From positions 1 to 24,364 of IMG/VR virus record IMGVR_UViG_3300048611_000027: a stretch of DNA of 24,364 nt; one strand, given 5' to 3'. This stretch comes from a virus (lineage: Duplodnaviria; Caudoviricetes). The notes below the pieces were generated by a model. That model worked only from the letters and a program-made list of their open reading frames with translations. It searched no databases and had not been told where the DNA came from. Positions 1,538 through 24,364 of this stretch are shown piece by piece (the stretch's first letter is position 1; each line of letters begins with the position of its first letter). A program made the position numbers and the translations under genes.

Positions 1538-1560
1538 CTACGTAACAATTTGTTACAAAG
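1538..1560. repeat. Palindromic element copy 1 (CTACGTAACAATTTGTTACAAAG)
   Basis: GTAACAA-T-TTGTTAC core; overlaps the RBS of the next gene. Confidence 0.85.
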
Positions 1561-1568
1561 GTGAATTG

Positions 1569-3860
1569 ATGTCTCTATTCGGTGCAGAATTAATCACAAC
1601 GTTAGCTGACCGTGACTTTTCCTCAGACACAGGATTCTGGGTGAAGTATGGTGCTGGTACGACTATCGCTGATGGAACGTTGAATTGTTTCACTGACGGT
1701 ACTCAGGCTGGTGTTTATCGTGATGCAATTCTTACTTGGGGCGCCAAGTATCGCCTTAGGTTTACGATTGGGAATTATACTGGTGGTGGTCAAGTCGGTG
1801 TCGCACCTGGGCCTGTTGCGAACGGTTATTGGTTGCCTGAAGCGGGCACGTATGACGTTGAGTTCGTTCATGATGGTAGTGTTGCAGGCCGGCTCGGAAT
1901 CTGGTGCGATGTTCCTGATGTTACGTTTGATGACTTTTCGCTGAAAGAGATTACTGGCGATGATGAGGGTGTAACTTATCCTAGACATTTCCGGTTAGGT
2001 GTTGAGCTAATTGCTGCGCAGGCTGACCGAGAGTTCTCCAGTGACACTGGCTGGTGGACGAAAGTTGGGACTGCCGTCATTACCGGTGGCGTGGCGACGC
2101 AAACGACTAACGATGCTAGTGGTATCTACCGCAACGCGATTTTAACCTTCGGCGAGACCTATCGTTGTGAGATGGATCTCGGCAATCATCCCGGAGGTGA
2201 TGGAGTTGGTCTCGCTTCTTGAACGGTTTCAGGGTATTACTATCTCCAGGCTGGAGGTAGTCATGGTTTTAACTTTGTTCATAACGGCGTCGAACCGCAG
2301 CGTTTTCGTACGCGGAGCTTGTTCGATGGCGTCACGTTTGACAACTTGTCAGTTCGGCAGGTCATCCCTGACATAAGTAATCCTCCGGCGGATTACTACA
2401 TGAATCTCGGCGATGAACTTATTGCAGTTCAGGCTGATAGGGAATTCTCAAGTGACACAGGGTTCTGGACGAAGAACGGCACGGCTACTATAGGCGATAA
2501 TATTGCGCTGTGTGGAACGGGTACTAGCGGTATCTCCCGTGCAGCTCTTCTTGAATTAGGCTCAGTTTACGCTTGCTCTGTTACCGTTGGAAACTATACA
2601 GCCTCTGAAGGAACTGAGGTTGGGCTGGCTACAGAAACCATTACCGATGGCTATTTCTTTCCTTTTGCTGGAACGTTTCATTTTGAGTTCATTCATAACG
2701 GGACTACTTCAGGCTACTTCGGTCTCACCAGCAACGTCTCTGGTGTAACGTTTGATAACGTTTCGGTGAAGAAAGTTCTAAGCACACGATTCTCAACGGA
2801 CTTTGCGGATGAGACTGTAGGCCAAGAACCTAGCACCTGCACACGTCGCTGGCATACGCTTTCTGCTTTCACTGTCGAAGAACTCGAAGGTACGATTAGC
2901 GGTAAAGTATTACAGCTTGGTGATCCGACAGGTAACAATCTGCAGTTCCTTTCTTGGGACGTGCCTGGCCAGTTTGCTAATGCTGATTTCTTATATCATC
3001 ACCGGGCCAACACAGCTCCTACTGATGCGTTTCGCCACGGGGCTGTTGTGCGCGGGGCAGGAGATGAGACCAGCGAAACAGGTTACATAATTAACTGGAC
3101 TACGAGTGCTCAGCGTTGTTCTTTGATGCGATATTTGAACGCGTCAGGTACTACACTTACTAACGTGTACCCTTTCCTTTTCACTGACGCCGATTGGATC
3201 TGGTCTCGTTTGAACATTTTCAATCAAACTATCCGGGTCAAAAGCTGGCTCGGTGCGTTTGAAGATCAGCCTGCTGAATGGGACGATGAACGTGTTAATA
3301 CTTCCGTAATCACTCGTGGTTATGTGGGTGCGTTTCATTACTATAGCGGCACTGATCAGTATGATTATTTCTCTGTCGCTATTGGTGGATTAACAGCACT
3401 AGGCCCGGCTGAAGCATTCACGACTACGTTAAACAACAGTTCAGCTTTGCTGGCATCGTTATCCATAGCTCGTGCTGTTGTTGCTTCGTTGGCTAATACA
3501 ACTTCAATCGTTGCACAGCTCAGCTTAGCTCGCGCGTTGATTAGTGCCATTGCGAACTCGTCAACGCTTAGTGGAATCTTAACTGTTACAGGTTTACCTT
3601 CTTCTGATTTCATTGCCACGCTGACTAACACTAGTACCTTACTTGCTGACGTTTCAGTCGCTCGTGCGTTTCAGGCTTCGGTAAGTAATCAGGAACAACT
3701 GCAAGGCTTGCTGAGTCTTCTAATCTCTTTGCAAGCTACGCTGGCGAACACGTCAGATTTCACCATTACGCCTGACTCGGTAGCCTTTCATGAGATCGTA
3801 CGTTTAGTTTCACGGATTAGTTTCACCGTCAACCTAATCAATCGCGTGCGTTTTAATTAA
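1569..3860 (+). CDS. Putative receptor-binding/virion protein: three CBM-like beta-sandwich repeats, lectin-like domain, 20-aa repeats; one in-frame TGA at 2220-2222
   Basis: ORFs 1566-2222 and 2319-3860 share a frame. The 32 codons between them are open and continue repeat 2 in register with repeats 1 and 3 (G.ELI...ADR.FSSDTG.W ... VTFD..S...). Confidence 0.7.
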
Positions 3861-3874
3861 CCACGGAGTTTCGT

Positions 3875-4162
3875 ATGAATAAAATCTACGTCGGTGATAT
3901 TAACACTGAGATTCAGGTTGACTGTGTTAGTGACATCTCACAAGCTACCGCCTATGCAATCAGCGTCGTGAAACCTGACGGGACGAAGGTTGATTGGCCT
4001 GCTGAGTTGATTGAGGATTCAGTTTCGATTATTTCTTACTCTACTGTTTCCGGCGATCTAAACGTTGCAGGCGTCTACCGACTTCAGGCTGTGGTCACGA
4101 TGCCTAACTGGCAAGGTCGTGGAGAAACAGATCTTTTACCTGTCTACAAACATTACGCTTAA
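3875..4162 (+). CDS. BppU-N-like (Ig-fold) virion protein
   Basis: YVGD...DISQAT...KPDGT..W.A...Y.T..GDL..AG.Y.LQA pattern typical of BppU-like domains; RBS GGAG. Confidence 0.6.
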   Translation: MNKIYVGDINTEIQVDCVSDISQATAYAISVVKPDGTKVDWPAELIEDSVSIISYSTVSGDLNVAGVYRLQAVVTMPNWQGRGETDLLPVYKHYA

Positions 4163-4173
4163 AGGAGTTTTTC

Positions 4174-4596
4174 ATGGGACTTTCAAACGCAATTCGGGCT
4201 AGTTTGCTTGACCATCTTTTTGGTAATGGAGCGTTGACTCCGCCTGATGTTTATGTAGGCTTTTCAACGACTACGCCTACGGTAACAGGCACGAACGTTA
4301 CTGAACCTTCCGGCGGTGGGTATGCAAGGGTAGACACCACTACCGTCAACAAATGGGGCGCTGCGACTACGGCAGATTCTACCGCAACGATTACCAACGA
4401 TGCGACTATCACCTTTCCCACAGCTACTGCTGATTGGGCAACAGGTGCTTACATGACGCATTTGGTTCTTTACGATGCCGCTACCGCTGGAAACTTTCTG
4501 GGTTTTGGGGAACTACCCGAAGCCAAGCCTGTATTGAACAACGACACTGCTTCTTTCGGCGTTGGGACTCTTACTGCCACGATTACTTCCGCTTAA
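4174..4596 (+). CDS. Conserved phage virion structural protein (fibre/decoration-associated type)
   Basis: LLDHLFG...E.SGGGYARV...ITFPTATADW...THLVLYDAATAGNFL pattern common in phage structural modules; RBS AAAGGAG. Confidence 0.65.
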   Translation: MGLSNAIRASLLDHLFGNGALTPPDVYVGFSTTTPTVTGTNVTEPSGGGYARVDTTTVNKWGAATTADSTATITNDATITFPTATADWATGAYMTHLVLYDAATAGNFLGFGELPEAKPVLNNDTASFGVGTLTATITSA

Positions 4597-4607
4597 GCGA
4601 GGTTTTA

Positions 4608-4919
4608 ATGGAGCACTTCATCACGACGAACCCGGGCTTTATGTTGTGGATGTTAGGTGGTATTTTTACCTTGATAGGTATTTTACTTTCATTACTCTTT
4701 AATTCTTATGCTACCAAAGATAAGAAACGTGATGAAGTGCTTGAGGCTTTGAGAGATACAATTAATAACGTAAACAACAGTCTACTCCATGTGGCAGATC
4801 AAATGCGGGAGTTCTTGCATGGGATAGATACGAGGCTCAGCGTACTCGAACGAGAGCATCGAATTTATACTAACAATTCCGAAGTTCCTTGCAGCTATTC
4901 GATAAGTAAAAAATCATAG
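4608..4919 (+). CDS. Single-TM protein with coiled coil (possible lysis accessory)
   Basis: GAGG RBS then ATG at 4608. Hydrophobic FMLWMLGGIFTLIGILLSLLF followed by a heptad region ending IDTRLSVLE. Confidence 0.55.
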   Translation: MEHFITTNPGFMLWMLGGIFTLIGILLSLLFNSYATKDKKRDEVLEALRDTINNVNNSLLHVADQMREFLHGIDTRLSVLEREHRIYTNNSEVPCSYSISKKS

Positions 4920-4930
4920 GTGCTTACTTA

Positions 4931-5824
4931 ATGTCTGAATTGATTAAAACACCTGAACTTAAACGTATTATGGCTGCGTGTTCTTTGAGCACTAAAGTCT
5001 GCGGCAAGGTATTATTTCCTGAGCGGTTTTATAATCCGTTCTCTACTTTGCACGATGAGATTTTTAAACTTCTCGATGATGATTCCAAACAACGCGTGGC
5101 TATCGCAGCGCCACGCGGGTTTGGGAAGACTACGATTAACACGATCACGCACCCCGCTAAACGGATTTTGTTTCAGGAGAAGAAATTCATTGTACCTGTT
5201 TCTGCTACTGCAACAAACGCCGTTGCACAAGGAGAGAACTTAAAGCGCGAACTGCTTACTAATCCTCAAATCGTAAAACTTTTCGGACCGATGAAGTCAG
5301 ATACGTTTTCGAAGGATTGTTGGATTACTGCCACAGGCACGATGGTACTGCCGAGAGGGGCAGGTCAGCAGGTTCGCGGGATGCTCTTCGGCAACAACCG
5401 GCCTGACTTAATCATCGTCGATGACTTGGAAGATGCCGAATCAGTAATGAATCCTGAATCGCGTCAGAAGCTCAAGGATTGGTTCTTTGCTGATCTTTGT
5501 AACTGCGTGGATCGTAGTTCGAAGAACTGGCGGATTATCGTAATCGGCACTGTCCTGCACGAGGATTCACTTCTCGCCAACTTGCTCGAAGATCCTGATT
5601 GGGCTTCAGTACGGCTTGAGATCTGTGATGATGACTTGAAATCAAAGTGGCCAGATTTCATGACTGATGAAGAAGTTCGAAAGCTTTATGAGTCTTTCAA
5701 GCGTCGTGGTCAGTTAGACGTGTTTTATCGTGAGTATCGTAACATTCCGATCTCGACAGAAACAGCCACGTTTAACCAAGCGATGTTTAAATACTATGAT
5801 GAATTCGAGCTTGTTGGCTGCTAA
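4931..5824 (+). CDS. terL: Terminase large subunit, N-terminal ATPase part
   Basis: Walker A APRGFGKTT, Walker B PDLIIVDDLED, motif III IGTVLHEDSLL. Confidence 0.9.
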   Translation: MSELIKTPELKRIMAACSLSTKVCGKVLFPERFYNPFSTLHDEIFKLLDDDSKQRVAIAAPRGFGKTTINTITHPAKRILFQEKKFIVPVSATATNAVAQGENLKRELLTNPQIVKLFGPMKSDTFSKDCWITATGTMVLPRGAGQQVRGMLFGNNRPDLIIVDDLEDAESVMNPESRQKLKDWFFADLCNCVDRSSKNWRIIVIGTVLHEDSLLANLLEDPDWASVRLEICDDDLKSKWPDFMTDEEVRKLYESFKRRGQLDVFYREYRNIPISTETATFNQAMFKYYDEFELVGC

Positions 5825-6416
5825 TACAAAGCAAAAGCCAATATTAACCAACGTGGTAATCGTCGATCCGGCTAAGACAGTTGAGTTACATTCAGCTGAC
5901 TCCGCCATCGTCGGTTGGGGAATTGATCGAACTTCAAAGCGAATGTATTTTCGTGATTGTGTAGCAGATCGATTCTACCCTGATCAGCTTTATGATGAAA
6001 TGTTCGCAATGGTTACGCGGCTTAAGGCTACGATCTTAGCCATTGAAGTAACTTCGCTTCACGAATTCATTGTTCAGCCGATTAAAAACGAAATGCGTAA
6101 ACGTGGAATCTTTCCGCTTTTGCTTGAGTTAAATGCGACAGGAAAGAAAGAAGAACGGATTGCTTGGCTAGCCCCGTTTTATCGTCAGGGTTACATCTAC
6201 CACAACCCTGCTATTTGTCAAAAGCTTGAACAACAGCTCTTAACTTTTCCACGCGCGCGTAAGTTTGACGTAATGGATGCGGCAGCTTACATCGTGAAGG
6301 TAATGGAAAAGGAAGCTATTTATTTTGATCCTGTTGATTTACCTGACGGTGCTGATGAATACGCTGAGCTTGAGAATGAGCCGGCGTTTGATCAAACCAG
6401 TTGTCATCGAATATAG
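5796..6416 (+). CDS. terL: Terminase large subunit, C-terminal RNase H-like nuclease part (+1 frame)
   Basis: VIVDPA, DSAI, IEV, KEERI and FP...DVMDA acidic nuclease motifs. Overlaps the ATPase ORF in the +1 frame; true start or fusion point uncertain. Confidence 0.85.
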   Translation: MMNSSLLAANTKQKPILTNVVIVDPAKTVELHSADSAIVGWGIDRTSKRMYFRDCVADRFYPDQLYDEMFAMVTRLKATILAIEVTSLHEFIVQPIKNEMRKRGIFPLLLELNATGKKEERIAWLAPFYRQGYIYHNPAICQKLEQQLLTFPRARKFDVMDAAAYIVKVMEKEAIYFDPVDLPDGADEYAELENEPAFDQTSCHRI

Positions 6417-6427
6417 TTTTTAATTTA

Positions 6428-6452
6428 CCTATGGAACAAATTGTTACATAGG
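6428..6452. repeat. Palindromic element copy 2 (CCTATGGAACAAATTGTTACATAGG)
   Basis: Intergenic between terL and portal. Confidence 0.95.
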
Positions 6453-6467
6453 TTAGGGAGTTACACT

Positions 6468-8402
6468 ATGCCTGTTGTCATCAACACTAATACACGTACA
6501 CAGGTAAACTTCAAAGATGTGAATTATGATTATTCGTATCCGAATGAGCTGAATTTAAAACCAGGTACGAAGCAGCACGATGAACTTGTTAAGATTGTTA
6601 TGGATCGTGCACGGGCAAGTGCTAATGTGATGACAGGACGGCATGCGTCGTGGCGTGAGATAGATCACGTTCTTACGGGGTATATTGTACTTAGTGATAA
6701 AGAAAAAGAACTTAAGCTTCGGGACAAGCGTAAGCCTGTTTCGATCGTGTTTCCGTACTCTTACGCGATTATGGAAACCTTGCTTAGTTATCTTTGTGCC
6801 GTGTTTTTTCAGGATCCTATTTTTCGGTACGAAGGAGTTGGGCCTGAGGATGTGATAGGCGCACAGCTTCTCCAGCACGTTAATCAAGTCCATGCGCAGA
6901 AGACGAAAGTTCCACTTGCCCTTCATACGTTCTTTCGTGATGCGTTGGCTTATGGAGTAGGCTCAGCGGCACCTATCTGGGTGCGTAAGACAAATAAGAA
7001 GCCTAAGCAAGCAACAGCACTGGATGGTATGCTGAATGGGCTGGCTGGAGATTCGACTACTAACCTAACCTTTGAAGGTAATGGGTTAGTTAACATTGAT
7101 CCGTACAAACTACTTCTTGATCCTTCTGTCCCTATCCAACGGGTACAGGATGGCGAGTTTGTAGGTTGGATTGAATCTACTAACGTCATGAACATCTTAT
7201 CTGATGAGAAGGATTCTGAGAACGGAATTTTTAACGCTAAGTATCTTGAGCATTTAGGGATTCGTAGAACTTGCATAATGTCTGATGATCCGTCAGGGCG
7301 GAATACTAAAACAAATCTCGGCACTATTGAGAACGATGCAGTAGTCAATCCTGTTGACAAGATCATCATGTATGTGAAACTAATCCCCAGCAAGCACGGT
7401 CTTGGGACTAGTGATTATCCCGAGAAGTGGATGCTTACTGTAGCTGGAGATTCTATCCTTATCGAAGCTAAACCTCTTGGGCTCTGGCATGATCAGTTTC
7501 CTATTGCCACTGTAGCGCCTGAGTTTGACGGATATTCAACTACTCCGATATCTCGGCTTGAGACGTTGTTTGGATTGCAAGGTACGCTTGATTGGCTCTT
7601 CAATGCACACATTACCAACGTACGTAAAGCGATTAACGACGTACTAATCTACGATCCTTTTCTGCTCAACAGCGAGGATTTGAAGAATCCTGAAGAAGGT
7701 AAACTTGTCCGTACACGCAGACCTGCGTGGGGTAAGGGCGTGAAAGATTCTATCATGCAGCTCCCTGTATCCGATGTTACACGTGGCCATGTAGCAGACT
7801 CTGCTTTCATCGTACAGTGGATGCAGAGAATTGGTGGCGCTGACGATGGCTCGATGGGTTCTTTGCGACAAGGCGGGCCTGAGCGGCTCACTGGTGAAGA
7901 GTTTCAGGGTACTCGGCAGGGAGCTTTTTCTCGCTTAAACAGGATAGCGCAGATTCTGGCCTATCAGGGCTTAAACGACATTGGAGAGTTTTTTGCTTCT
8001 CATACACAGCAGTTTATGTCGCAAGAGACTTTTATTAAAGTTTCTGGTGATTGGTTGGAGCGATTGCAGTCTGAGTATGGGATAGCGGCACCGACACGTT
8101 TCGCTGTTAAGCCGTCTGATCTGTCTATCGCTTATGACGTGATCATCAGTAGCGGTGAGCTTCCTGGAAGTAACTATTCTCAAGTTTGGGAACGTATGTT
8201 TGAAATCATCACCAAGCAGCCCGAGCTTGGGCAGAAGTTTGACGTGGCTAGAATTTTTAAACACATTGCGAGGAATAACGGGGCTAAGAACGTTGACGAG
8301 TTTATTCGAACTTCGACAGCTTCGAATGAGAAAGTAATGAGCGAAGCGCAAAAAGGGAACATGATTCCAGTAGCGCAAGCAGCGCAAGAAGGGATGATAT
8401 AA
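6468..8402 (+). CDS. Portal protein (podovirus-type)
   Basis: 644 aa directly after terL; AGGGAG RBS before ATG 6468. Size, position and a mostly helical pattern fit P22-like portals. Confidence 0.8.
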   Translation: MPVVINTNTRTQVNFKDVNYDYSYPNELNLKPGTKQHDELVKIVMDRARASANVMTGRHASWREIDHVLTGYIVLSDKEKELKLRDKRKPVSIVFPYSYAIMETLLSYLCAVFFQDPIFRYEGVGPEDVIGAQLLQHVNQVHAQKTKVPLALHTFFRDALAYGVGSAAPIWVRKTNKKPKQATALDGMLNGLAGDSTTNLTFEGNGLVNIDPYKLLLDPSVPIQRVQDGEFVGWIESTNVMNILSDEKDSENGIFNAKYLEHLGIRRTCIMSDDPSGRNTKTNLGTIENDAVVNPVDKIIMYVKLIPSKHGLGTSDYPEKWMLTVAGDSILIEAKPLGLWHDQFPIATVAPEFDGYSTTPISRLETLFGLQGTLDWLFNAHITNVRKAINDVLIYDPFLLNSEDLKNPEEGKLVRTRRPAWGKGVKDSIMQLPVSDVTRGHVADSAFIVQWMQRIGGADDGSMGSLRQGGPERLTGEEFQGTRQGAFSRLNRIAQILAYQGLNDIGEFFASHTQQFMSQETFIKVSGDWLERLQSEYGIAAPTRFAVKPSDLSIAYDVIISSGELPGSNYSQVWERMFEIITKQPELGQKFDVARIFKHIARNNGAKNVDEFIRTSTASNEKVMSEAQKGNMIPVAQAAQEGMI

Positions 8403-8425
8403 CTATGGAACAAAATGTTCCAAAG
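8403..8425. repeat. Palindromic element copy 3 (CTATGGAACAAAATGTTCCAAAG)
   Basis: Immediately after the portal stop; contains the ATG of the next gene. Confidence 0.9.
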
Positions 8426-8698
8426 AAGCCGGGGTATCGCTGCACTCGTGGGCAGTTTGAGGACTTTAAGTCTTCGCTGCTCTGGCAGGATATGCTGCAA
8501 GAAGTGGAACTTTGGATCAGTAACGCGCATCATAATTTAGAAGATCCGAGTTTGAGTGATATTGAGACCGCTGTTATTCGAGGCTGTATTCGCTCCGCGC
8601 GCGATTTAATGCAGCTTCCGGATACGATTATAAATATTCTAACTATGGAGGCTGAGTATGATTCGGACGGGGATGTGGAGAAAACTGAAGAAAGTTAA
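8405..8698 (+). CDS. Small helical hypothetical protein between portal and scaffold
   Basis: 97 aa, starts 2 nt after the portal stop; a small gene at this position is usual in podovirus head modules. Confidence 0.65.
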   Translation: MEQNVPKKPGYRCTRGQFEDFKSSLLWQDMLQEVELWISNAHHNLEDPSLSDIETAVIRGCIRSARDLMQLPDTIINILTMEAEYDSDGDVEKTEES

Positions 8699-9581
8699 CT
8701 GGAATAATCAGTTGGATATTTTTGACGAGGATTTTGAGGAGTTGTTCGCCCCTGGAGGTGGTGAGGAAGAAGAACAGCCTGCTGATCCACCTGCTGATCC
8801 TCCGGCTGATTCCACTACGCCCCCTGAGCCACCTAAGCCTGCTGCAGGGGAGGCTGGGGCTACTGTTCCTGCAGATTCAACAGCCCCTGCAACTGTTCCA
8901 GTTGAGCCTGTAGTAGATCCGGCCACTCCTCCTGCTGCTACTCCTGAGGATTCACTAACAACTCTTCGTAACCAACTCGAAGAGCTTTCGACTAAACTAG
9001 CTCAAGCTCAAGCAGTATCTTCCGTTAAGCCTACTGGAGCGGTGACTCCACCTACGCCTCAGGCTGGGAAAGGTACTCGGGAAGTACAGGATTTTCTTGG
9101 TGATCTTGATATTGACGAAGTTGTTTCAAAACCTGAACTGTTTAACCAGGTTTTGAACAGTGCCGTATCCGCTGCAATTGGACCGATGATGGAGCAGCTT
9201 CATGCGTTAGTGACTGCCCTCCCTACATTGGTCCAACCTGCAATTCGGCAGACTATCTCAATGGAGAAATCCATAGATCAGTTTTACCAGGCACATCCTG
9301 TGCTGGCTAATTTTAAACAGGTCGTTGGGCTGGTAGCTAACGAACTGCAAACGGCCAATCCCCAAGCAGCGCTTGATTCTATCCTTCCGCAAATCGCGGA
9401 TATGGCGTATACGAAGTTGAACTTGCCTGGGCCCGGTCCGGTAGGCTCAGTGAATACGCCAGTAACGCCTGCAGTAACGGCTCAAGCTACTGCATTGCCT
9501 CGTACTGCCTCTTCACGTAACGCTCCTGCTACGGGGAAGACGTCAAAAATTGAACAGGAAATTAACGATCTATTTTCTTAA
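8658..9581 (+). CDS. Capsid scaffolding protein
   Basis: GGAGG RBS. Acidic Pro/Ala-rich N-terminus (PADPPADPPAD), coiled coil, helical domain, C-terminal IEQEINDLFS; upstream of the capsid gene. Confidence 0.7.
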   Translation: MIRTGMWRKLKKVNWNNQLDIFDEDFEELFAPGGGEEEEQPADPPADPPADSTTPPEPPKPAAGEAGATVPADSTAPATVPVEPVVDPATPPAATPEDSLTTLRNQLEELSTKLAQAQAVSSVKPTGAVTPPTPQAGKGTREVQDFLGDLDIDEVVSKPELFNQVLNSAVSAAIGPMMEQLHALVTALPTLVQPAIRQTISMEKSIDQFYQAHPVLANFKQVVGLVANELQTANPQAALDSILPQIADMAYTKLNLPGPGPVGSVNTPVTPAVTAQATALPRTASSRNAPATGKTSKIEQEINDLFS

Positions 9582-9593
9582 AGGAGTTCCATC

Positions 9594-9977
9594 ATGGGTG
9601 ATACTTTTGCTAAACAGCTTAACGAGGATGTACTGGGGCATCCACTCTACGACCGCGCTACTGAGCGTCAGAAAGTTCAGCTGATCACTGCCACGGCTAA
9701 CGGCGCGATTAACGACTACGCTGAGCTCGTGCAGCTCAGCAGCACTACTCCGTTGATTGCTGCGACTATCGCCAAACCCCGTCCTGGCCGGTTTCTGGTA
9801 ATTACGCAGGTTGATGGTGGTACTGCCGGCCATACTGTTACGTTGGCTGCCGGGACTTTCGACGGCACCAATGACGTGGCCACGTTTAACGCAGCTGGTG
9901 AATCTTTGATTCTCTACGGTGTTTCCGACACTCGTTTTCTGATCGTTGAAAACCTTGGTGCTGTCGCGTTCAGCTAA
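9594..9977 (+). CDS. Probable head decoration/capsid-associated protein
   Basis: Strong AAAGGAG RBS; 127 aa beta-rich Thr/Gly/Ala protein next to the capsid gene. Confidence 0.5.
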   Translation: MGDTFAKQLNEDVLGHPLYDRATERQKVQLITATANGAINDYAELVQLSSTTPLIAATIAKPRPGRFLVITQVDGGTAGHTVTLAAGTFDGTNDVATFNAAGESLILYGVSDTRFLIVENLGAVAFS

Positions 9978-10011
9978 TCGCTAACCGACTCTTTTTGAAA
10001 GGATAATCAAA

Positions 10012-11316: not shown

Positions 11317-11347
11317 TAAGTAACGTAATCGGAACTGCTTTATTCTC

Positions 11348-11378
11348 AGGGGAGTTGGGAGTTATTCTCAACTCCCCT
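11348..11378 (+). terminator. GC-rich hairpin after the capsid gene (weak terminator or mRNA-stability stem)
   Basis: AGGGGAGTTG(11348-57)/CAACTCCCCT(11369-78) perfect 10-bp stem, extendable by 4 pairs including G-U; no U-tract. Confidence 0.55.
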
Positions 11379-11400
11379 ATGTAACAAATTGTTCCATAGG
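11376..11400. repeat. Palindromic element copy 4 (CCTATGTAACAAATTGTTCCATAGG)
   Basis: Fused to the post-capsid hairpin; its final AGG begins the AGGAG RBS of the gene at 11408. Confidence 0.95.
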
Positions 11401-11407
11401 AGCTTTT

Positions 11408-12495: not shown

Positions 12496-12497
12496 TA

Positions 12498-15144: not shown

Positions 15145-15157
15145 TATTCTTTCTTCT

Positions 15158-15182
15158 CCTATGGAACAAATTGTTCCATAGG
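15158..15182. repeat. Palindromic element copy 5, perfect (CCTATGGAACAA-A-TTGTTCCATAGG)
   Basis: Perfect 12-bp inverted arms around one base; intergenic. Confidence 0.97.
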
Positions 15183-15213
15183 TAATTAGTTTCTACTTTT
15201 AAGGAGTCTACTC

Positions 15214-15648: not shown

Positions 15649-15660
15649 GGATTCGTCAAA

Positions 15661-16791
15661 ATGGCTACTGATCATTTAGACATTACAATACCTAAGCAGC
15701 CTATTCGTGGGCGAGGCTTAGCTCGTGGTCTTCAGCCTTGTGAGACTATCTACGCGGCTAAAATACGCGGACAAGTTAGTCTCGCTGGGCATGCTGTTAT
15801 CAGCAATCCTATTCATACTGAGCCTGTTCGCGGAAGTGCCAAACTTACTGGTACATTTGTTCGTCAATACTTGGAACTCAACACCGTCATCTGGGCTGGC
15901 ATCGGCTCGATGAACTGTATTCCGAGTAAGAGCAATATCACAGCTGGGCATGCTGTACTACCTTGGCGCGGCCCTGCTTGGGATGTTCGTAAACTCGGGC
16001 AGAATCTCATTGTCTATGGACAACGTGGGATTTCAAAACTCCATCCCGTAAGCGATCCGTTTCCTGGCTACGGTCAGAACGTTCTCGTGACTCAGGGAAT
16101 TGATAGTCGCTATGCTGTTTGTGGCGATGAGTTAATTCATTATTATGTCGCAGAGGATGGGAATCTGTATTCATTACGTCCTAATGCCTTACCCGAAAAA
16201 CTAGGGTATAGTGAGTTCTTTGCACCTTTCATGGGAAACTTCGTCAGCCTTTATGAACCTTCGTCAGGGCGAGCGTTCTTCTCAAGTGAGGACGTTGGAA
16301 AGACTTTAGTCTATAATCCAGAACTCGGCCTTACGGTACTGGATATTGTCATCACTGATCTTTACGTTGCCAATGACGGAACGTTACAAATCGTTTCGCC
16401 TTCGATTAACAATAACGAACTTCCAATTATCCTACATGAATGCGTAAGTCATGCTACGGATTTTGGTCAGCGTTGTATTAAAACTTTAACGGGACTGGCG
16501 TTTGGAATAGATTTCGAAGCTACCACGCAAGCCTGGGCGATTGTTTATTATCGCTTTGATAAAACACAAGCCTTTACCAAGTTCAAAGAAGTTCGATTAA
16601 ACAAAGAATGTTATGCTCATATAGGCGCGTCTGGTTTAGAGTTCATGATAGGGCTTAAATTCCAACGCTCCTTAACCTTGGAACCCGTCTACCTGGATTA
16701 CATTCACGCACAAGTACAGTTTTCCGACAAACGCTATCGTCGAGGACTGATTGCTTCATCAGGACGAGGAGGCCCAGATGTTGATAGTTAA
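15661..16791 (+). CDS. Probable tail nozzle/DNA-stabilisation protein (P22 gp10/T7 gp12-like), lacking the N-terminal part
   Basis: Propeller-like VIWAGIG, LGQNLIVYG and GIDSRYAV segments plus C-terminal TDFG..IK sandwich; directly before the GNAT-like and ejection genes. Confidence 0.55.
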   Translation: MATDHLDITIPKQPIRGRGLARGLQPCETIYAAKIRGQVSLAGHAVISNPIHTEPVRGSAKLTGTFVRQYLELNTVIWAGIGSMNCIPSKSNITAGHAVLPWRGPAWDVRKLGQNLIVYGQRGISKLHPVSDPFPGYGQNVLVTQGIDSRYAVCGDELIHYYVAEDGNLYSLRPNALPEKLGYSEFFAPFMGNFVSLYEPSSGRAFFSSEDVGKTLVYNPELGLTVLDIVITDLYVANDGTLQIVSPSINNNELPIILHECVSHATDFGQRCIKTLTGLAFGIDFEATTQAWAIVYYRFDKTQAFTKFKEVRLNKECYAHIGASGLEFMIGLKFQRSLTLEPVYLDYIHAQVQFSDKRYRRGLIASSGRGGPDVDS

Positions 16792-17215
16792 ATTACTTCC
16801 TGATCAAATCCCCCCTTACTGGGATATCATTAAACATGGTAGTCAGCAAGTGCTTCCGCCTACTACCGCAGACAACCCTGCCGCAATGAACGGAATATTG
16901 CAGAATCTGTTGACAGGGATTCTCCAGTGTTGGGTCTTGTTTGATACTGACGGACAGCATTTCAAGGCTTTCTTGATCACTGCCATCTCAACAGATCATT
17001 TTTCAAATCAACGCTTTTTGCATCTTTACGTGCTGTATGGTATACGTCCTCTAGACGAAGCCGAATGGCAACAAAGCATTGAAGTTCTCGTGGCCTTTGC
17101 ACAATCGAACAATTGCCAAGTAATCACTGGTTATACTAATAACGATGCTTTATGTGACAAGCTAGCACAGTACGGATTTTCGAAAGAGTTTTCAATGGTT
17201 ACTAAACGTCTGTAA
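16778..17215 (+). CDS. GNAT-fold-like protein (P22 gp14/T7 gp13 position)
   Basis: GAGGAGG RBS; FAQSNNCQVITGYT...LAQYGF resembles the GNAT C-terminus; typical position before ejection genes. Confidence 0.55.
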   Translation: MLIVKLLPDQIPPYWDIIKHGSQQVLPPTTADNPAAMNGILQNLLTGILQCWVLFDTDGQHFKAFLITAISTDHFSNQRFLHLYVLYGIRPLDEAEWQQSIEVLVAFAQSNNCQVITGYTNNDALCDKLAQYGFSKEFSMVTKRL

Positions 17216-17238
17216 CTATGGAACAATTTGTTCCAAAG
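17216..17238. repeat. Palindromic element copy 6 (CTATGGAACAATTTGTTCCAAAG)
   Basis: Directly after the upstream stop; its end forms part of the AAGGAG RBS. Confidence 0.93.
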
Positions 17239-17246
17239 GAGTGGCT

Positions 17247-18179
17247 ATGAAAGTATACACAGAAGTAGTAATTGATATGGCTACTATGGAAGTTTTATCT
17301 GAAACTTCTTATGAGTATGCTGGAGTAGTCGCGGAAGCAAAAGGTGGTGGAGGTTCTAGCGGCGAAGTTGATTATCCTGATTATATGAAAGAAGCTCATG
17401 GGCAAGCATTAAATCGGCGAGGTAATGATACGTTAACACGTAGCTTAACCTATTACATGAATGCTGCGTTTGATGAATCACCTTTTCTTGAGCATCTTCC
17501 GGGCTGTATGGATACGTTGTTTGGGACAAGTGCTAATCCAGTTTTTGGTTTGTTAAGCTCAAATATCGGAACTGATACTGTTGCAGTTTTTAACGATGTC
17601 TATCTTAGCGTCTCAACTAACCCTGCACACGTTGCCTTGTTGAATGCTGAGATTGATATAATGAACGATGATGTAGATTTAAAAGTTCTGCCACGTTTTC
17701 AGGCTGGAATGCGCGACATGCAATGTGTGATGACTTCGGCTTTTAGCATCGGTCATGCGATTATTGAATCACAGAAAAATCGTGACGTAACTAAGCTAAT
17801 AGCTGAAACTAATTACAATATGCTTAAACTTGCTGATGAAGTTTTTAAACAGTATCTTGATTGGCAAAAAACACTTGTTGTGCATAGTGCTGAATTAGCA
17901 CGTGTTTATGCGGCAGGTAAATTTGACGAGATTAAATTCATCAGCGAGGCAACTGCCAAGGATCGTACTTGGGAGCTGGAATTGTTTAACTACTTCTCAA
18001 CCTTAATGGCTTCGATCGGGGGCGGGACGCCTACACAGTCAGGTAAAGAAGCATCAACAGCTCAAAACGCTCTCGGAGGCGCTATGAGTGGCGCGGCTGT
18101 AGGTACCTCAATTAATCCTGGTTGGGGCACGGCTATCGGAGCAGTTGTCGGCGGCGTTGCAGGTGCTTTATCATCTTAA
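17247..18179 (+). CDS. Ejection/internal virion protein (P22 gp7-like position)
   Basis: AAGGAG RBS; leader ending in KGGGGSS; helical core; C-terminal glycine zipper GAMSGAAVG..PGWGTAIGAVVGGVAG. Confidence 0.65.
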   Translation: MKVYTEVVIDMATMEVLSETSYEYAGVVAEAKGGGGSSGEVDYPDYMKEAHGQALNRRGNDTLTRSLTYYMNAAFDESPFLEHLPGCMDTLFGTSANPVFGLLSSNIGTDTVAVFNDVYLSVSTNPAHVALLNAEIDIMNDDVDLKVLPRFQAGMRDMQCVMTSAFSIGHAIIESQKNRDVTKLIAETNYNMLKLADEVFKQYLDWQKTLVVHSAELARVYAAGKFDEIKFISEATAKDRTWELELFNYFSTLMASIGGGTPTQSGKEASTAQNALGGAMSGAAVGTSINPGWGTAIGAVVGGVAGALSS

Positions 18180-18196
18180 CTTTTAAGGAGCATAAA

Positions 18197-18808
18197 ATGG
18201 CTATAACTCCAGGACAAGAATTTGCACTTCCTCCTAATGCTAGTCCTACGCCAACTCAACCGGCTGCAGGGTTTAGTTTCGGGAACATGTTTAGCCGGGC
18301 GAATAACTGGTTACAGCAGAACCCTGAAAAATTCTCTATCATCGCAGATTCGATCGGCCGTGGATTAGCTCCGGATAATCCTATGGCCGGGATCGGAACT
18401 TTCATGGCGCAGAGTAGCTTAGCAAATAAAGCCACTAAAGCGCAGCAAGTTGAACGGCAGAGCATGCTGGATGCTTTGCGTGGGACGCTTAATAATCCTA
18501 ACGTTTACAACGATCAGCAAGCGCCGAATTTAGGTGTACCTGGCATGGGTGATTTTACCGCTGCGGGCGTAGCTGGTCCTACGAGTATGACGCTTACTGG
18601 TGACGGTTATAGTATCAAAGGCAACACACGAGATGTTAACAAAGCTGCGGGGACTGGGGCTAGCGGCGGCACCGGGCCTCCTCCTCCTGGTGTTCCTCAG
18701 TTCCCGCAGTCTGTTGAAGGTGTTCCGGAAGGGTATCAAGGAGGCGTTAATCCTCCCGTAGCTCCGCAATCTATGGGCAACTATTTCAATCCACCCCGCC
18801 CCTGGTAG
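18197..18808 (+). CDS. Ejection/internal virion protein, Gly/Pro-rich
   Basis: AAGGAG RBS before ATG 18197; low-complexity G/P/A/Q composition; position in the ejection cluster. Confidence 0.6.
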   Translation: MAITPGQEFALPPNASPTPTQPAAGFSFGNMFSRANNWLQQNPEKFSIIADSIGRGLAPDNPMAGIGTFMAQSSLANKATKAQQVERQSMLDALRGTLNNPNVYNDQQAPNLGVPGMGDFTAAGVAGPTSMTLTGDGYSIKGNTRDVNKAAGTGASGGTGPPPPGVPQFPQSVEGVPEGYQGGVNPPVAPQSMGNYFNPPRPW

Positions 18809-18870
18809 CCCCGTCGGATTCAGGCTCTGGAAATGCAGCGTTTCCAGACCTGACGGGGCTGCCGCCTGAG

Positions 18871-19659
18871 ATGATTTTGCAACTCGGCAATGCCGGGCAC
18901 GCTAATGCTGCGCTAATGGCTGATAGTCTTCGTGGAGGGTTTAAGGATAAGTTAAACGAAGGCGGGCTAATGAACGATATTCAAGGACGGCAAGATCTTA
19001 AAGAATATCGTGACATGTCGTTGGCGTTAACTAATCAAGCGCAGTATTTGGATGCTGTAAAGACTCAACTTAATGCTCAGCTCGCGACGGCTAAGAATGC
19101 CGCTGAAGTTGAACGACTTACTCAAGCTGCACGAAAACTTGAGCAAGATACGGTCAGAATTAATCTCATGTCTAATGAGCTTAATTCAAAACTCGGCGCG
19201 ATTGAACGAATGAGTTTAGCTGGCAATGATCCGTCGAAAGTTAACTTCGGCGACATGGCTGCGGTAGGTTTTAGGCCACCGATTCCTACTGCTAAAGATT
19301 CGATGGATGCTGATAACTATGCACGGTCACTGCTATATGAACAAGATTCTGATGGACGTTCTACCGGCCGTGTACGTCAGAATATGACGCAAAGCGAACT
19401 CACTTCCATCAGCCGTGCTCTTGAGCATTCTGGCCAAGCGTTAGGTCAAATTGATCTACAGCCTGTGGAGTATCAAAACTGGAGAGGCAAAACGGTTACT
19501 GCACCTGCTCGTTCCCTTTACTTTATCTCGCCGAAAGACGGTTTGGGTAAGATGGGACCGGAACAGTTAAAACAGTTCCTTAACCAACTCCGCGAAGCTC
19601 ATGACATCGATGAAGATGATCCTGTATGGGCTAAAAACGTTGAGAAGTTTTTAGAATAA
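18871..19659 (+). CDS. Ejection/internal virion protein (possibly the -1 frameshift extension of the upstream gene)
   Basis: Helical/coiled-coil protein; frame open from 18751; no clear RBS before ATG 18871. Confidence 0.6.
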   Translation: MILQLGNAGHANAALMADSLRGGFKDKLNEGGLMNDIQGRQDLKEYRDMSLALTNQAQYLDAVKTQLNAQLATAKNAAEVERLTQAARKLEQDTVRINLMSNELNSKLGAIERMSLAGNDPSKVNFGDMAAVGFRPPIPTAKDSMDADNYARSLLYEQDSDGRSTGRVRQNMTQSELTSISRALEHSGQALGQIDLQPVEYQNWRGKTVTAPARSLYFISPKDGLGKMGPEQLKQFLNQLREAHDIDEDDPVWAKNVEKFLE

Positions 19660-19682
19660 TTCTTCCAGTAAAGGATTTTATT

Positions 19683-22600
19683 ATGGCTATTATTAACTAT
19701 AACCTTACTGATCTATCCTCAGGTGAAGCCGCCTCAAAACCTCTAGTTGATGAAACGCCTAATAAAATCTACTCCACCGGACAGAAGATTAAAAAAGGCG
19801 TCGGTGCCTATGCTGACTTTCTCGGCGCAGGCATCGACGCTTATACTGCACCTACACGAGACTTTGCTGCGGCGATGCCAACGATGGCTGCGTCAGGGTT
19901 AGTTGGACTTGGTAGCTTGTTTAGCGGGACTACGCCTGAAGGCTGGAAGCCTGGCGATCCACCTCCGCAGAAAGCTAATACTGAATTAGCTGAACGAAAT
20001 ATTCAGACTATTCAACAATTCGTTGCAGAACGGACTGGGCCGCAAACGAAGGCTGGAGCGTTTACGTCTGAGATGACAGCTAAACCTTTTGAGTGGCTGG
20101 ATAAATACGCAGCAAAACCGTTAGGGAATTTAGTTCAAGATCTTACAGGCAGTGCTGGACTGGCTGCAGGCACAGTTGCGGCTGTGGACGTCGGAGTTCC
20201 GATGCTTGTTGGTGGCGGCGTTAAACGCGTTTGGAATTCTACCCCTGTGCGGATGGCTCGGATTCCTGAGCGTGGGATGACGTTACCTTCCTGGGAACAA
20301 GTACAAAAAGCAAATCCTGGCATAAGCCAAGGTGAGTTGCTTAGAAAATATCCTGCGTATAAAACAGAAGCTGCAGCGATGCGGAATGCTGTAGAAGTTT
20401 CGAAACCGGGGAGTGTTCCAGCTGCCCCTGTTGAACCTGTCAAAGCAGCTAGCCCTGCGGCTCCAGTTGAGCCAGTTGCGCCTGCGGCTAAACCTATCAC
20501 TACTAGCCTGACGAAAAAGCAACAGGCTAATGTGTTAAACCGTGTGGCTGAATTAGGCTCTGTCGAAGCAGTTAAAGCAGCGTATCCTAAATCAGACTCA
20601 CTAGCTCTTGACGCGTATGCTGTTGAGTTAGCTGAGGCTGCTGAAGCACAAGGACTGTTTGCGCCGCCGGAAGTTCTTGCAACGGAAACTACCGCAGCTC
20701 CTCCTGTACCTGGCCAACCGTTAGGCCTTCCTGCGCCTAAGCCGCCACGACAGGTTCCGGCCATGAACGAACTTCCTGCTGGCGCCCCGATTCAGCTTGG
20801 GATGGCTGAGAAACCTGCTGCACCTATGGAACAAATTGTTCCACAGGAGTCTGTTGCGGCTCAACCCATTGAACCTGTTGAACTTTCAGAGCCTCCCATG
20901 CAAGGTGTCGAGGCAGAACTTGAAGCTCTCGGCGCTGATTTGATGACTAAAGGAGGAGAGCAGTTTTGGAAAGCTAAACTTTCAAACGGCAAAACTGTTC
21001 GTATTCCACAAGAAAAGAAAAACGGAGCTGAAAATGCTTTAACTAAAATCAAAGAATTCGAACAACAGATTGCTGACATTAAAGCCGTTCCAACGTTCAC
21101 GGACGAAGCTTTAGCGAAGGCTGAGAACTACCAATTGAATCCTCGAAAGTTCAGTGACGTAACTTCTGCGCAGAACTTTCTTAAATCGGCAGGCTCTCGT
21201 GCTGATTTAGCCGGCGGCCAGCTTGAGCTGATTAAAGTCGGGGATCGTTATCGTGCGGCTCAGAAAGTTACTCCTGAACCTGAGTTAGTTGAGGATGATT
21301 TTCTCGATGATGATTTCGATGTGGACACAAGCAGTCTGAAAAAAGCTATGTCGGAGTATGAAGAAGGTGCGAGAACGTATGATACAAAAGCGTTGGCAAG
21401 TAAGCCAACGGTTCAAGCTACGCCTAAAGCCACTGAACCTGTTATGGCTGAGTTAACGACGAAACAAAGCCAAGCTACTCGCCGAGAGGCTATCAGAGTA
21501 GCAGCGGAAAAAACTAAGACAAAGAAACAGTTAACTCCTGAGGAAGAGATTCAACAGATTCTTGACAGCGATCCTGATGCTTATGATCCTGAAATGCAAT
21601 CCTGGGAAGAGCTTAAGCAGCTTGATCAGGAGAAGGATTATTACGATCAGGTTGAAGAGATTGAAGGTAGATTAGGAAGAACTGTTCGTGATCTTACTGA
21701 TCTGTTTAGCGACGAACGTGGCGCAGCAGGTAAAGACATTAGCAAACTTAAGCGTTCGTTGAAAGATGTTGCTGCAGAGCTTAACGCAGCTAAGCGTAAG
21801 GTTATTCATCTGGGCTATGACGAAACTGCTGCGGCAGCGGAAGCTATCGGAGAGGGGCAGCAAAAAGTGAAAGCTGCCGCAGCTTCAGGAGATGTTACGG
21901 AAATTCCTCAAGTAGTCGAAGAGCTGAACACCGTGAAAGAAATGTTAAAGGACGTTGCAGGAAAAGCGAAAGTTAAAAAGGACATGAAGAAAGCTGAAGA
22001 GAAGACAGTTAAAAAGGTTAAGCTGTCTGAGGCAGAAGCTGCGTATTATGCTAACCTGATTAAGCAGCAAATGGAAATCGATCTTGATAGAGCTTTTAAC
22101 TCCAACGTAAGTCCGATTAAAGATCTGGTCGATTACATGAAGTCAATTGATCGGATAGTGCCTAAGTATAAACAAGGCTCGTTTGAAGTGCCTAAGCGTC
22201 AAAAGCCTGCTATTCCAAAAGATTCTCCTGAAATGTTAGATCCTTCAAAGGATCTTATGCGGATTGGTAGTGGTCGTGCGAGTACTACCTCAGGCCACCT
22301 ACTCACCCCAAGCTTTGCCCTGCGTAAGTTTTTCAAGCCAGGGACTAGTTTGATTATAGATGCCATGGAAAGTACGATGGCGTTAGGTACTAATATTCGC
22401 AACACACATCGCTGGGCTAAGGATACGTTTGGTAAGTTGCCTAGCGCAACTCAAGCCATTGAGCAGACGTTAGGTAAGTTGTACGAAGAGACTCGGAAAG
22501 GATTAGATAAAAGTGATCAGCTTAAAGCTGAGGTAGGCCAGCATTCTGTGCGGAGAAAAGATGCAGAGAAGATGGTTAAGCTGAATGAACGTCGCTTAGC

Positions 22601-24260
22601 TAACACTCATGCAGCGCATCCGAAGGTTCCGATCTACAAGGCGGAGTTAGTCAAAGCTCAGATGGCTGTTGCTAAGTATAAGGCACAGGCAACAGCCGCA
22701 GGTAAACGTTACAAGAATCTCCGTAAAGCTACAATGGAGAATTTAGTAAACAAGTACGATGCAATGATTATACCTTTGGCTGAGAAGAATCCACGTGTAC
22801 GTGTAGCTTTAGCTGCCGCAGGAAAGTTGCCTAAGGGAATTTCTCTTTCTCCTGCTGAAGCAATGTTAGCTGAAAAAGCAACTGAGTATTTTGAATCTAC
22901 CGCTACTCGTATGCGTGAACTCGGCTTGCCAACGAAAGAAGATGGTGCTTACATCACGCATTCGTTTGGCGAAATAGCCACCGACAAATGGGCTAAGGCT
23001 TTTAAGTACGAGCCGAGTGTGCCGATTAAATTAAAGTTCGCTTCTCAGGTTCCGTATTCTCGCGTATGGCTTCCTGATATTAATCAGTTGCTGGATCACT
23101 ACATTCCAACAGTCGAACGCAAGTTAGCTTTCCAACCTTTGCTGGATCGTTGGAGTGATTTTATTGAGTATCAAGCTCCTCCTAACATGCGCGAGATGAT
23201 GCAGGATTGGCTTAAGTCGAATCTGTACAAAGAACACGGTGGCTTGGTTAACAAAGTTGTTAACGGAGTTGTGAATGCTGAGTACGTAAGGCTCGTAGGC
23301 CTGTCCGTGTCAACTGCCGCTAAGCATGCGTCGAAACTACTTGATACTTTCGGTGTCAACACTATGTCGGCCACAATGCAAGGAATGTATCAGACCTCAA
23401 AACTTCCGTTACAGGCTACGGCTAAAATGCTTGGCATGAAAGGCGAAACTCCTGAGCTTGATCTGTTTAAAGCGTACGTTTCAATGGATCAGATTGTTAG
23501 AGTTCTAGACGAAACACCAGGGCTTAAATCTTCGTGGTCGTTAGTTAAAGTTTTATCAGGCAGCCTAACAACTACAACGGAGATGTTAGATAACGGTGTT
23601 ACGATTATGGCTACAACGATAGCTTCAGCGAATGCTAAGCTGACAGTAGATCAAGCACGTGCCTTAGTGTTAGATTCTATTCTCAAAGCTAACTTTCGTG
23701 GCGGTGTTGACCAGCCGTTGTATATGAAGAACCCAGCTGGCAGGTTGCTTGGAATGTTTCAAACTACCGTGCAAAAAACATTCGAACTTCGAGCATCGCT
23801 TTTAAAGGATCAGTGGACGGGCGGGAAGGATGCATTCGGTAAGAGCAAACGGAATCGGCTGCTGCGGTATACGTTAATGGTCGGTGCAGTAACCGCTCTT
23901 TTCCGGAGCGAAGGGAAGGACATTCTTCACTGGTTTACTGAAGCTCCTTATATGCGCGACTGGCTGCATGGGACGAAAGAGTTTCCGTATTACGAAACAG
24001 CTATGCCTAAGACAGCTGCATCGCCCCCAGTTCAGTTGTTAACCGAAATGAATCAGAAAGGTGTGTGGGAAGGTGCGAAGGAGCACTTTGATTACACGCC
24101 GATAGTTAAGTACTTGACTATGCAAGATAATGATTATCCGAATAAGTATTACGACACCCCGACAGATCAAATATTCGGCTTGCGGAAGTTAGACGCTGGA
24201 CATACGAAGAGACAATCAGGACGGCCTAGGATTAAGTCACGAAAAAGACCTAAACGTTAA
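19683..24260 (+). CDS. Large ejection/internal virion protein (1525 aa)
   Basis: AAAGGA RBS; last and largest gene of the operon; Ala/Pro/Lys-rich linker, helical C-terminal half, basic tail; no catalytic motif recognised. Confidence 0.65.
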   Translation: MAIINYNLTDLSSGEAASKPLVDETPNKIYSTGQKIKKGVGAYADFLGAGIDAYTAPTRDFAAAMPTMAASGLVGLGSLFSGTTPEGWKPGDPPPQKANTELAERNIQTIQQFVAERTGPQTKAGAFTSEMTAKPFEWLDKYAAKPLGNLVQDLTGSAGLAAGTVAAVDVGVPMLVGGGVKRVWNSTPVRMARIPERGMTLPSWEQVQKANPGISQGELLRKYPAYKTEAAAMRNAVEVSKPGSVPAAPVEPVKAASPAAPVEPVAPAAKPITTSLTKKQQANVLNRVAELGSVEAVKAAYPKSDSLALDAYAVELAEAAEAQGLFAPPEVLATETTAAPPVPGQPLGLPAPKPPRQVPAMNELPAGAPIQLGMAEKPAAPMEQIVPQESVAAQPIEPVELSEPPMQGVEAELEALGADLMTKGGEQFWKAKLSNGKTVRIPQEKKNGAENALTKIKEFEQQIADIKAVPTFTDEALAKAENYQLNPRKFSDVTSAQNFLKSAGSRADLAGGQLELIKVGDRYRAAQKVTPEPELVEDDFLDDDFDVDTSSLKKAMSEYEEGARTYDTKALASKPTVQATPKATEPVMAELTTKQSQATRREAIRVAAEKTKTKKQLTPEEEIQQILDSDPDAYDPEMQSWEELKQLDQEKDYYDQVEEIEGRLGRTVRDLTDLFSDERGAAGKDISKLKRSLKDVAAELNAAKRKVIHLGYDETAAAAEAIGEGQQKVKAAAASGDVTEIPQVVEELNTVKEMLKDVAGKAKVKKDMKKAEEKTVKKVKLSEAEAAYYANLIKQQMEIDLDRAFNSNVSPIKDLVDYMKSIDRIVPKYKQGSFEVPKRQKPAIPKDSPEMLDPSKDLMRIGSGRASTTSGHLLTPSFALRKFFKPGTSLIIDAMESTMALGTNIRNTHRWAKDTFGKLPSATQAIEQTLGKLYEETRKGLDKSDQLKAEVGQHSVRRKDAEKMVKLNERRLANTHAAHPKVPIYKAELVKAQMAVAKYKAQATAAGKRYKNLRKATMENLVNKYDAMIIPLAEKNPRVRVALAAAGKLPKGISLSPAEAMLAEKATEYFESTATRMRELGLPTKEDGAYITHSFGEIATDKWAKAFKYEPSVPIKLKFASQVPYSRVWLPDINQLLDHYIPTVERKLAFQPLLDRWSDFIEYQAPPNMREMMQDWLKSNLYKEHGGLVNKVVNGVVNAEYVRLVGLSVSTAAKHASKLLDTFGVNTMSATMQGMYQTSKLPLQATAKMLGMKGETPELDLFKAYVSMDQIVRVLDETPGLKSSWSLVKVLSGSLTTTTEMLDNGVTIMATTIASANAKLTVDQARALVLDSILKANFRGGVDQPLYMKNPAGRLLGMFQTTVQKTFELRASLLKDQWTGGKDAFGKSKRNRLLRYTLMVGAVTALFRSEGKDILHWFTEAPYMRDWLHGTKEFPYYETAMPKTAASPPVQLLTEMNQKGVWEGAKEHFDYTPIVKYLTMQDNDYPNKYYDTPTDQIFGLRKLDAGHTKRQSGRPRIKSRKRPKR
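20823..20847. repeat. Palindromic element copy 7, intragenic (CCTATGGAACAAATTGTTCCACAGG)
   Basis: 24/25 match to copy 5; read in frame as PMEQIVPQ. Confidence 0.95.
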
Positions 24261-24263
24261 ACG

Positions 24264-24303
24264 AAAAAAAGGGCTAGTTAGATTAATTTCTAACTAGCCC
24301 TTT
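24264..24303. terminator. Rho-independent terminator, probably bidirectional
   Basis: AAAGGGCTAGTTAGA(24268-82)/TCTAACTAGCCCTTT(24289-303) perfect 15-bp stem. A7 on the left gives a U-tract on the - strand; TTTCT on the right. Confidence 0.85.
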
Positions 24304-24326
24304 CTATGTAACAATTTTTTCCATAG
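24304..24326. repeat. Palindromic element copy 8 (CTATGTAACAATTTTTTCCATAG)
   Basis: Abuts the terminator; one G>T change in the right arm. Confidence 0.85.
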
Positions 24327-24364
24327 GTTAAAACATATGTCCTAAAAAAAGAATAGTTGAAGTT

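Follow-up and report, generated by a model that had tools for sequence, protein, structure and literature searches.

Dispersed palindromes of a phage late operon as very probable binding sites of a ParB-HTH-methyltransferase fusion protein

The window, as we call the whole 24,364-bp viral contig analyzed here (IMGVR_UViG_3300048611_000027), carries eight dispersed copies of a 23-bp palindrome. Comparison with related phages indicated that these palindromes are very probably the cognate sites bound by the helix-turn-helix (HTH) of a ParB-HTH-methyltransferase fusion protein of the phage. With more reserve, we lean towards parS-like sites that load a putative sliding clamp, which would methylate the phage DNA in cis. 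A wider reading, to which we give even chances, is self-addressed modification: private, evenly spaced sites and a CTP-gated clamp with a relaxed-specificity methyltransferase would confine modification to that genome only, and helix and address would co-evolve by a readable code. The array would resemble parS or OB sites in its working, but it is not a parABS system.

The CTATGKAACAAWTTGTTMCATAG pattern gave eight matches in the window with 0-2 mismatches, and none in 100 dinucleotide shuffles. With a symmetric position weight matrix, the eight copies scored 32.5-42.0 bits. The next-best position in the window scored only 6.3 bits, and thus there was no ninth copy. These tests bore out the eight copies, with their centers and gaps, reported in an earlier reading made without comparisons (the sequence-only reading). 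The spacing was more even than chance (gap coefficient of variation 0.31; p=0.0025 versus uniform placement), and also more even than that of random gene junctions (p=0.0025).

The exact 23-mer was present in one IMG/VR contig (L047), which is 92% identical to the window and is called here the 92% relative. The copies and the adjoining features are as follows (no strand assigned; each range of a copy begins at the start of its 23-mer):

1538..1560, palindrome copy 1: lies between genes, in the T/A form with 2 mismatches
6429..6451, palindrome copy 2: between the terminase nuclease part and the portal gene; present in the 92% relative
8403..8425, palindrome copy 3: past the portal stop codon; holds the ATG of open reading frame (ORF) 8405-8698; same in the 92% relative
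11377..11399, palindrome copy 4: past the major capsid gene and a hairpin (arms 11331-11360/11366-11395); overlaps the ribosome-binding site (RBS) for the adaptor; same sequence in the 92% relative
15159..15181, palindrome copy 5: intergenic; perfect 11-bp arms; counterpart in the 92% relative is the symmetric G>T/C>A form
17216..17238, palindrome copy 6: between a stop codon and an RBS; same in the 92% relative
20824..20846, palindrome copy 7: within the gene for the 1525-aa internal virion protein; present in the 92% relative
24304..24326, palindrome copy 8: adjoins a terminator-like hairpin at the convergence of the late and early arms
24327..24364, contig end: 38 bp past copy 8; the ParB-HTH-methyltransferase gene lies outside the window
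L047:412-1830, ParB-HTH-methyltransferase gene: about 4.5 kb beyond copy 8 in the 92% relative

The G/T variants of the left arm and the C/A variants of the right arm were uncompensated in copies 2, 4 and 8, as had been described. The DNA hairpin energies of the eight copies ranged from -1.0 to -10.6 kcal/mol. Base pairing was therefore not conserved among them, in agreement with the earlier preference for double-stranded sites of a dimeric protein over RNA pairing. Rfam gave no family match, and an RNA family or conserved hairpin was rejected. The copies with protein-coding content were 3 and 7 (MEQNVPK and MEQIVP, respectively). Only one copy had been placed inside a coding sequence. This holds for copy 7, but copy 3 contains the start codon of ORF 8405-8698, and two copies are therefore translated.

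In the part shared with the 92% relative, all the copies were retained (7/7), and the six substitutions in them all fell at positions that vary in the window. Beyond copy 8, the relative has a convergent early module, which encodes in order a small ORF, a 472-aa ParB_N and N6_N4_Mtase protein, dCMP deaminase, UDG-PolA and primase. The 472-aa protein matched ParB_N (PF02195) above the cut-off (E 4e-9) and N6_N4_Mtase (E 6e-20). A parS-like array had been one option of the sequence-only reading. It was a sound option, and the likely binder is encoded by the ParB-type gene beyond copy 8 and the contig end, out of sight of that reading. A looser pattern search found more phages with several TGTAACAAWTTGTTACA copies; four of these share the early module at 35-42% identity, and two more fragments were tied to them by structural genes.

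Sequencing run X1 contained 99% of the sampled words of the window, and may be where the window came from. Its contigs span positions 1-743, 808-966 and 969-6322 of L047 at about 90-96% identity, with a depth of 5-13 in the early-module contigs versus 15.5 in the late part. Judged from run X1 and the relative, the window phage very likely encodes the fusion, although window and gene lie on separate contigs. The strain in run X1 is longer than the IMG/VR relative by several hundred bases at L047 6320-6322, between the primase gene and copy 8.

The sequence and fold matches of the fusion were ParB, Noc, KorB and beta-class methyltransferases, and the ParB/Noc profile matches reached the HTH region. 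A predicted model (predicted local distance difference test 69, predicted template modeling score 0.44, 5 sequences) laid out a ParB fold, an HTH (helices 148-155 and 159-174), a long helix and the methyltransferase. Among 80 fusion proteins, the nucleoside triphosphate (NTP)-binding motifs GxRR and ENxxR were intact in all 80. DPP(Y/F/W) was present in 75, and three of the remaining five were truncated. The beta-class order of motifs was present, with motif IV (DPPY 251-254) before motif I (FAGSG 409-413). A clade of five loci (L132, L135, L136, L138 and L140) has lost about 30 aa of the methyltransferase after DPPF (DAPF in L138) and retained the sites. This clade is a test case for the need of catalysis.

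The sample for co-occurrence was 37 records reached through the 80 fusion loci and capsid relatives (G031 by its first 20 kb only), plus 11 GenBank phages. The controls were phages reached through the primase of fusion-less relatives, among which 0/24 matched the fusion; 20 were fetched and six came from GenBank. Records of at least 37 kb were compared by one pipeline for both groups, and at least six copies of a phage's own palindrome were required. A de novo search found a private dispersed palindrome in most fusion phages, in the early and late arms. The array is not a feature of the late region, as first described: in complete relatives both arms carry copies, and the window is a fragment of 24 kb.

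At least six copies were present in 23/33 records with the fusion versus 2/26 related phages without it (Fisher 1e-6), although this p value is inflated, to the detriment of our reading, because the two groups are different clades. One control match was a degenerate repeat of GCTGC, the other a local cluster within 1.2 kb. Two of the positives, G010 and G012, had originally been found by motif. A dyad search with longer spacers, covering the fusion-bearing exceptions only, yielded four copies in Vibrio phage VS-ABTNL-3 (MF497422) and six in MW202489. The fusion-less PaP2, Tiera, P5, Kuura, EBPR3 and vir526 had only 1-4 weak copies.

In metagenome-assembled genomes (MAGs), the contigs with the motif were all phage-sized: one in G041 with 22 copies, one in G044 with six, and two in G043 with nine each. 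The second G043 contig, retrieved by motif alone, encodes the fusion. The G042 MAG had none of the pattern scanned, and 14 Mb of bacterial DNA from the same bins, perhaps not that of the hosts, was free of the motifs. The G041 contig (G041:C23, L387) has the densest array seen, 22 near-perfect 23-bp palindromes in 48 kb with two pairs 37-38 bp apart. Cultured Vibrio phage VS-ABTNL-3 (L380) has the fusion and four CAATCG-N6-CGATTG sites, at 171, 6566, 23357 and 38798, and offers an experimental handle. A different local array was seen in G058, which has no fusion: six copies of GGAATAC-N3-GTATTCC about 220 bp apart at 34496-35672. One or two TAATGTAACAAWTTGTTACA sites were found after duplicated genes in unrelated AT-rich phages (L040, at 9999 and 11132; L020, L057 and L061).

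The recognition helix comprises residues 159-165, HMSVSRD in the 92% relative. Pairings between helix residues and site bases were first spotted by eye, and an unbiased column scan followed. There were 32 records with clear odd-centered families, of which 31 were scorable for residue 164 and the base at +3 from the center (one G/C position was scored G). G was found at +3 in 16 of the 18 phages with Arg164 and in none of the 13 with other residues. Met160 went with a TTGTT-type half-site in 6/6 phages, one of them degenerate (G039). In the column scan (about 6,500 tests in seven protein families), Arg164 came first with p 5e-7, and the runner-up had 6e-4. In four more base traits, the helix ranked at or close to the top without a clear lead over other proteins.

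The primase tree has seven changes of Arg164 and eight of the base. Among six independent pairs, the changes were in the same direction in 5.5 on average and in the opposite direction in 0 (median p 0.03).

The Arg164/+3 rule was fixed before new loci were looked at. Of 96 new loci of at least 10 kb, a profile hit was obtained in 77, and filters chosen after the output was seen (36-90% identity to earlier proteins, at least two copies and an odd center) left 26; the loci are related to those of the training set. The rule agreed with 24 of the 26. One disagreed, which counts against it, and one was unscorable.

Changes in the helix were also followed in single relatives. The closest other relative (L504, 69%), with the helix HTAVSKD, has retained the outer CTwTG...CAwAG, and its inner bases differ. 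Desulfofustis phage LS06-2018-MD01 (OP947158; MD01), placed in the same part of the tree as the window, has the helix KSSISRD and the core GTCCCAAwTTGGGAC. This core is shared with the distant G020 and G021, which have the helices KSQVARD and KSAVARE, respectively. In a GKS-register mapping, residues 159, 164 and 165 would correspond to R173, N178 and T179 of Caulobacter ParB. R173 and N178 touch parS, and T179 is a specificity position (PMC7383237; PMC numbers here refer to the portions of each paper available to us). A subgroup with QxxVSE/D helices (G028, G037 and L425) has even-centered palindromes, that is, a 1-bp change in half-site spacing.

In the mechanism that we favor, a dimer of the fusion protein would dock at the palindromes and load as a nucleotide-gated clamp. 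Clamp closure would be NTP-dependent, with a dimer of the beta-class methyltransferase in place of the ParB C-terminal dimerization domain. Beta-class methyltransferases act as dimers and need dimerization (PMC7544214); in the fusion, a methyltransferase dimer could close the clamp. The loaded clamp would slide each way over about half a gap (1-4 kb), and N6-adenine methylation of relaxed specificity would be limited to site-bearing DNA. The gain would be protection from host restriction without methylation of the host chromosome. The plasmid-borne beta-class enzyme M.EcoGIX methylates plasmid DNA only and not the chromosome (PMC7736820). In 30 genomes, the window and the 92% relative both included, the sites were even, with a median gap of 4.6 kb. 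A clamp that needs to reach the whole genome would be well served by such regular sites, which are not placed like operators.

A number of observations weigh against binding by the fusion or against the clamp. No run X1 contig bridges the window and the fusion gene. Three phages with an intact-looking fusion (G007, G013 and G027) had no detectable site family, and that of G006 was weak; a dyad search for hidden sites in the first three gave nothing convincing. In the column scan, only the +3 base was clearly above noise, and +4T and +5A were matched or beaten by a column of another protein. G017 and G022 have Arg164 but T at +3. On a tree of ParB minus the HTH, five pairs gave p 0.06.

As for the enzyme, motif I reads VPF instead of DPF in 54/80 proteins, that of the relative included, with Val for the usual Asp. 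N6N4-MTase fusions were among the types picked for a screen of NTP binding, and the binders named in the available part of PMC12704722 do not include them. A phage ParB that activates a T-dioxygenase works without its NTP residues (PMC13229309), and published work speaks clearly neither for nor against NTP use by fusions of this kind (PMC12704722, PMC13229309). Phages with the fusion avoided 6-bp palindromes only marginally less than those without (median log2 observed/expected -0.80 vs -0.99, p 0.053). Avoidance of 4-mers was no different (p 0.46), and some fusion carriers were nearly without one 4-mer. Restriction-site avoidance was therefore rejected as support for methylation, being marginal and having yielded no target motif. 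The available parts of the pink-berry papers gave no methylation data for phage MD01.

The fusion shares with ParB-parS and Noc-NBS (PMC7383237) a ParB N-terminal fold with GxRR and ENxxR and an HTH with a GKS-type turn. The palindromes predicted as its sites likewise have bases that follow recognition-helix residues. Unlike them, the phage fusion is without ParA (PF13614, 0/26 viral records; controls detected 14/14) and has a beta-class methyltransferase in the C-terminal place. Its sites, unlike parS and NBS, are mostly odd-centered, 15-23 bp long and phage-specific, and are unrelated in sequence. They are dispersed, as are those of Noc.

M.EcoGIX, M.BceJIII and M.EcoGII are, like the fusion, beta-class DPPY enzymes encoded by mobile elements (PMC7736820, PMC7544214). 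On the other hand, M.EcoGIX is limited by single-strand specificity and PolI (PMC7736820), and has no ParB domain or site array. The same domain fusion has been published as ParB-CTPase/N6_N4_Mtase, phage-enriched and with a suggested anti-defense role (PMC12704722). It is among the commonest phage ParB fusions, of unknown function, and sections 7-8 of that paper give no HTH target, sites or mechanism for it. We found no published sites for ParB-methyltransferase fusions in a search that left most subscription journals outside.

Mycobacteriophage stoperators are likewise numerous repressor sites spread along the genome, most of them at junctions between genes. They are asymmetric sites of a monomeric immunity repressor in temperate phages, whereas the window sites are palindromic. 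Tyrosine integrase was found in 0/26 records (controls 14/14; serine integrases and repressors were not searched). The stoperator option of the sequence-only reading was weakened on both counts.

Among the alternatives, the best survivor is that the same protein on the same sites acts chiefly as a long-range transcription regulator like KorB or BisD, or as an elongation roadblock that times early and late expression, with the methyltransferase secondary. We consider this unlikely but worth weighing. KorB-OB of plasmid RK2 (PMC11790492) and BisD-bisS of ICEclc (PMC12409273) are ParB-family clamps on mobile elements that act at a distance from their own loading sites and control genes from there. 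Their output is transcription control with the partners KorA or BisC, whereas the phage fusion has an enzyme as effector and no evident partner. By crude gene calls, 201/256 sites lay outside coding sequence and 55/256 within it. Several copies in the window run into an RBS or a start codon, and many phages have a site at the convergence of the early and late arms.

On the other hand, intergenic sites were not enriched in sigma70-like promoters (6/197 vs 18/433 other gaps) or terminators (19/197 vs 28/433), and promoter/terminator placement was rejected. These tests are weak against a regulator, because a sliding one need not occupy promoters. Upstream of the ParB gene, the distance to the nearest site varied from 25 to 4642 bp, with no fixed position, and the retained catalytic motif also speaks against a secondary methyltransferase.

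Less probable still is that the site-bound protein serves to coat or condense phage DNA during replication, by Noc-like occlusion or nuclease shielding, with methylation incidental or site-independent. The even spacing over whole genomes and the position of the fusion gene next to PolA and primase are in its favor, as is the weak evidence of relaxed restriction pressure. Noc was among the top sequence and fold matches. This account leaves unexplained why a methyltransferase that is catalytically intact by motif stays fused throughout the group, and the lack of a ParA partner (0/26) also stands against it, as does that of an amphipathic membrane anchor, for which no directed search was made.

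We think it quite improbable that the binder is some other protein, be it TerS, a different phage regulator or a host factor, or that the palindromes are a host element like the repetitive extragenic palindromes or an RNA hairpin. In favor of this, the missing half of the genome lies outside the window. The HTH of TerS had been named as a binder in the sequence-only reading, and the HTH helix EMSVSQ of the window TerS (184-789) resembles the ParB helix HMSVSR. This likeness fails in other phages and is probably due to chance. No TerS column tracked the motif (lowest p 0.006-0.009 in about 350 tests), and TerS is also present in the site-less PaP2 and Tiera; it was rejected. The G010 proteins with BLAST matches in the window or the relative were only ParB-MTase, primase, UDG/PolA and TerL. 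The lack of the motifs in the co-binned bacterial DNA and the unconserved pairing disfavor a host element and an RNA hairpin, respectively. Known look-alikes (the TnrA/GlnR TGTNA-N7-TNACA, NrpR and LexA boxes) presumably fit only part of the variants, and could not explain a motif that changes with the phage helix.

Classical parABS partition of a plasmid-like prophage is hardly credible, in spite of an intact ParB_N and HTH and parS-like palindromes, for ParA was lacking in the 26 viral records, the sites in the 30 genomes were dispersed and not clustered as a centromere, and the nearest named relative is predicted to be lytic (PMC10370329); partition and tyrosine-integrase lysogeny were both rejected.

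Returning to the fusion as the binder, the predicted cognate sites and the residue-to-base rule give a common uncharacterized phage protein a testable target. If loading and sliding are true, self and non-self would be told apart by position on the molecule, not by target sequence, and the ParB CTP switch would have a new use. There would also be dozens of natural orthogonal clamp-site pairs, usable to direct methylation to chosen DNA molecules.

The window is a complete contig and a fragment of a phage genome, with one late operon of a podovirus-type phage that encodes TerS, a split TerL, an SU10-type portal, capsid, adaptor and a 1525-aa last gene. By capsid, its closest named relatives are phage MD01 (48%) and PaP2-like phages. 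MD01, VS-ABTNL-3 and the PaP2-like phages have the same layout, and related capsid and primase. MD01 carries the fusion (43%) and nine sites, and VS-ABTNL-3 the fusion and its four sites, with a different site sequence in each. The fusion is absent from PaP2, Tiera, P5, Kuura, EBPR3 and vir526.

The start of the contig consists of simple repeats (1-120 and 168-196; GTGA/GTGAGC and GGCGT runs). After these, upstream of TerS, is a near-consensus sigma70 promoter, TTGACA-17-TATGGT with an extended TG. The ATPase ORF (4931-5824) and the nuclease ORF (5730-6416) of TerL are in different frames. The identical split in the 92% relative indicated that this is not an assembly error, but either a natural split or a programmed frameshift.

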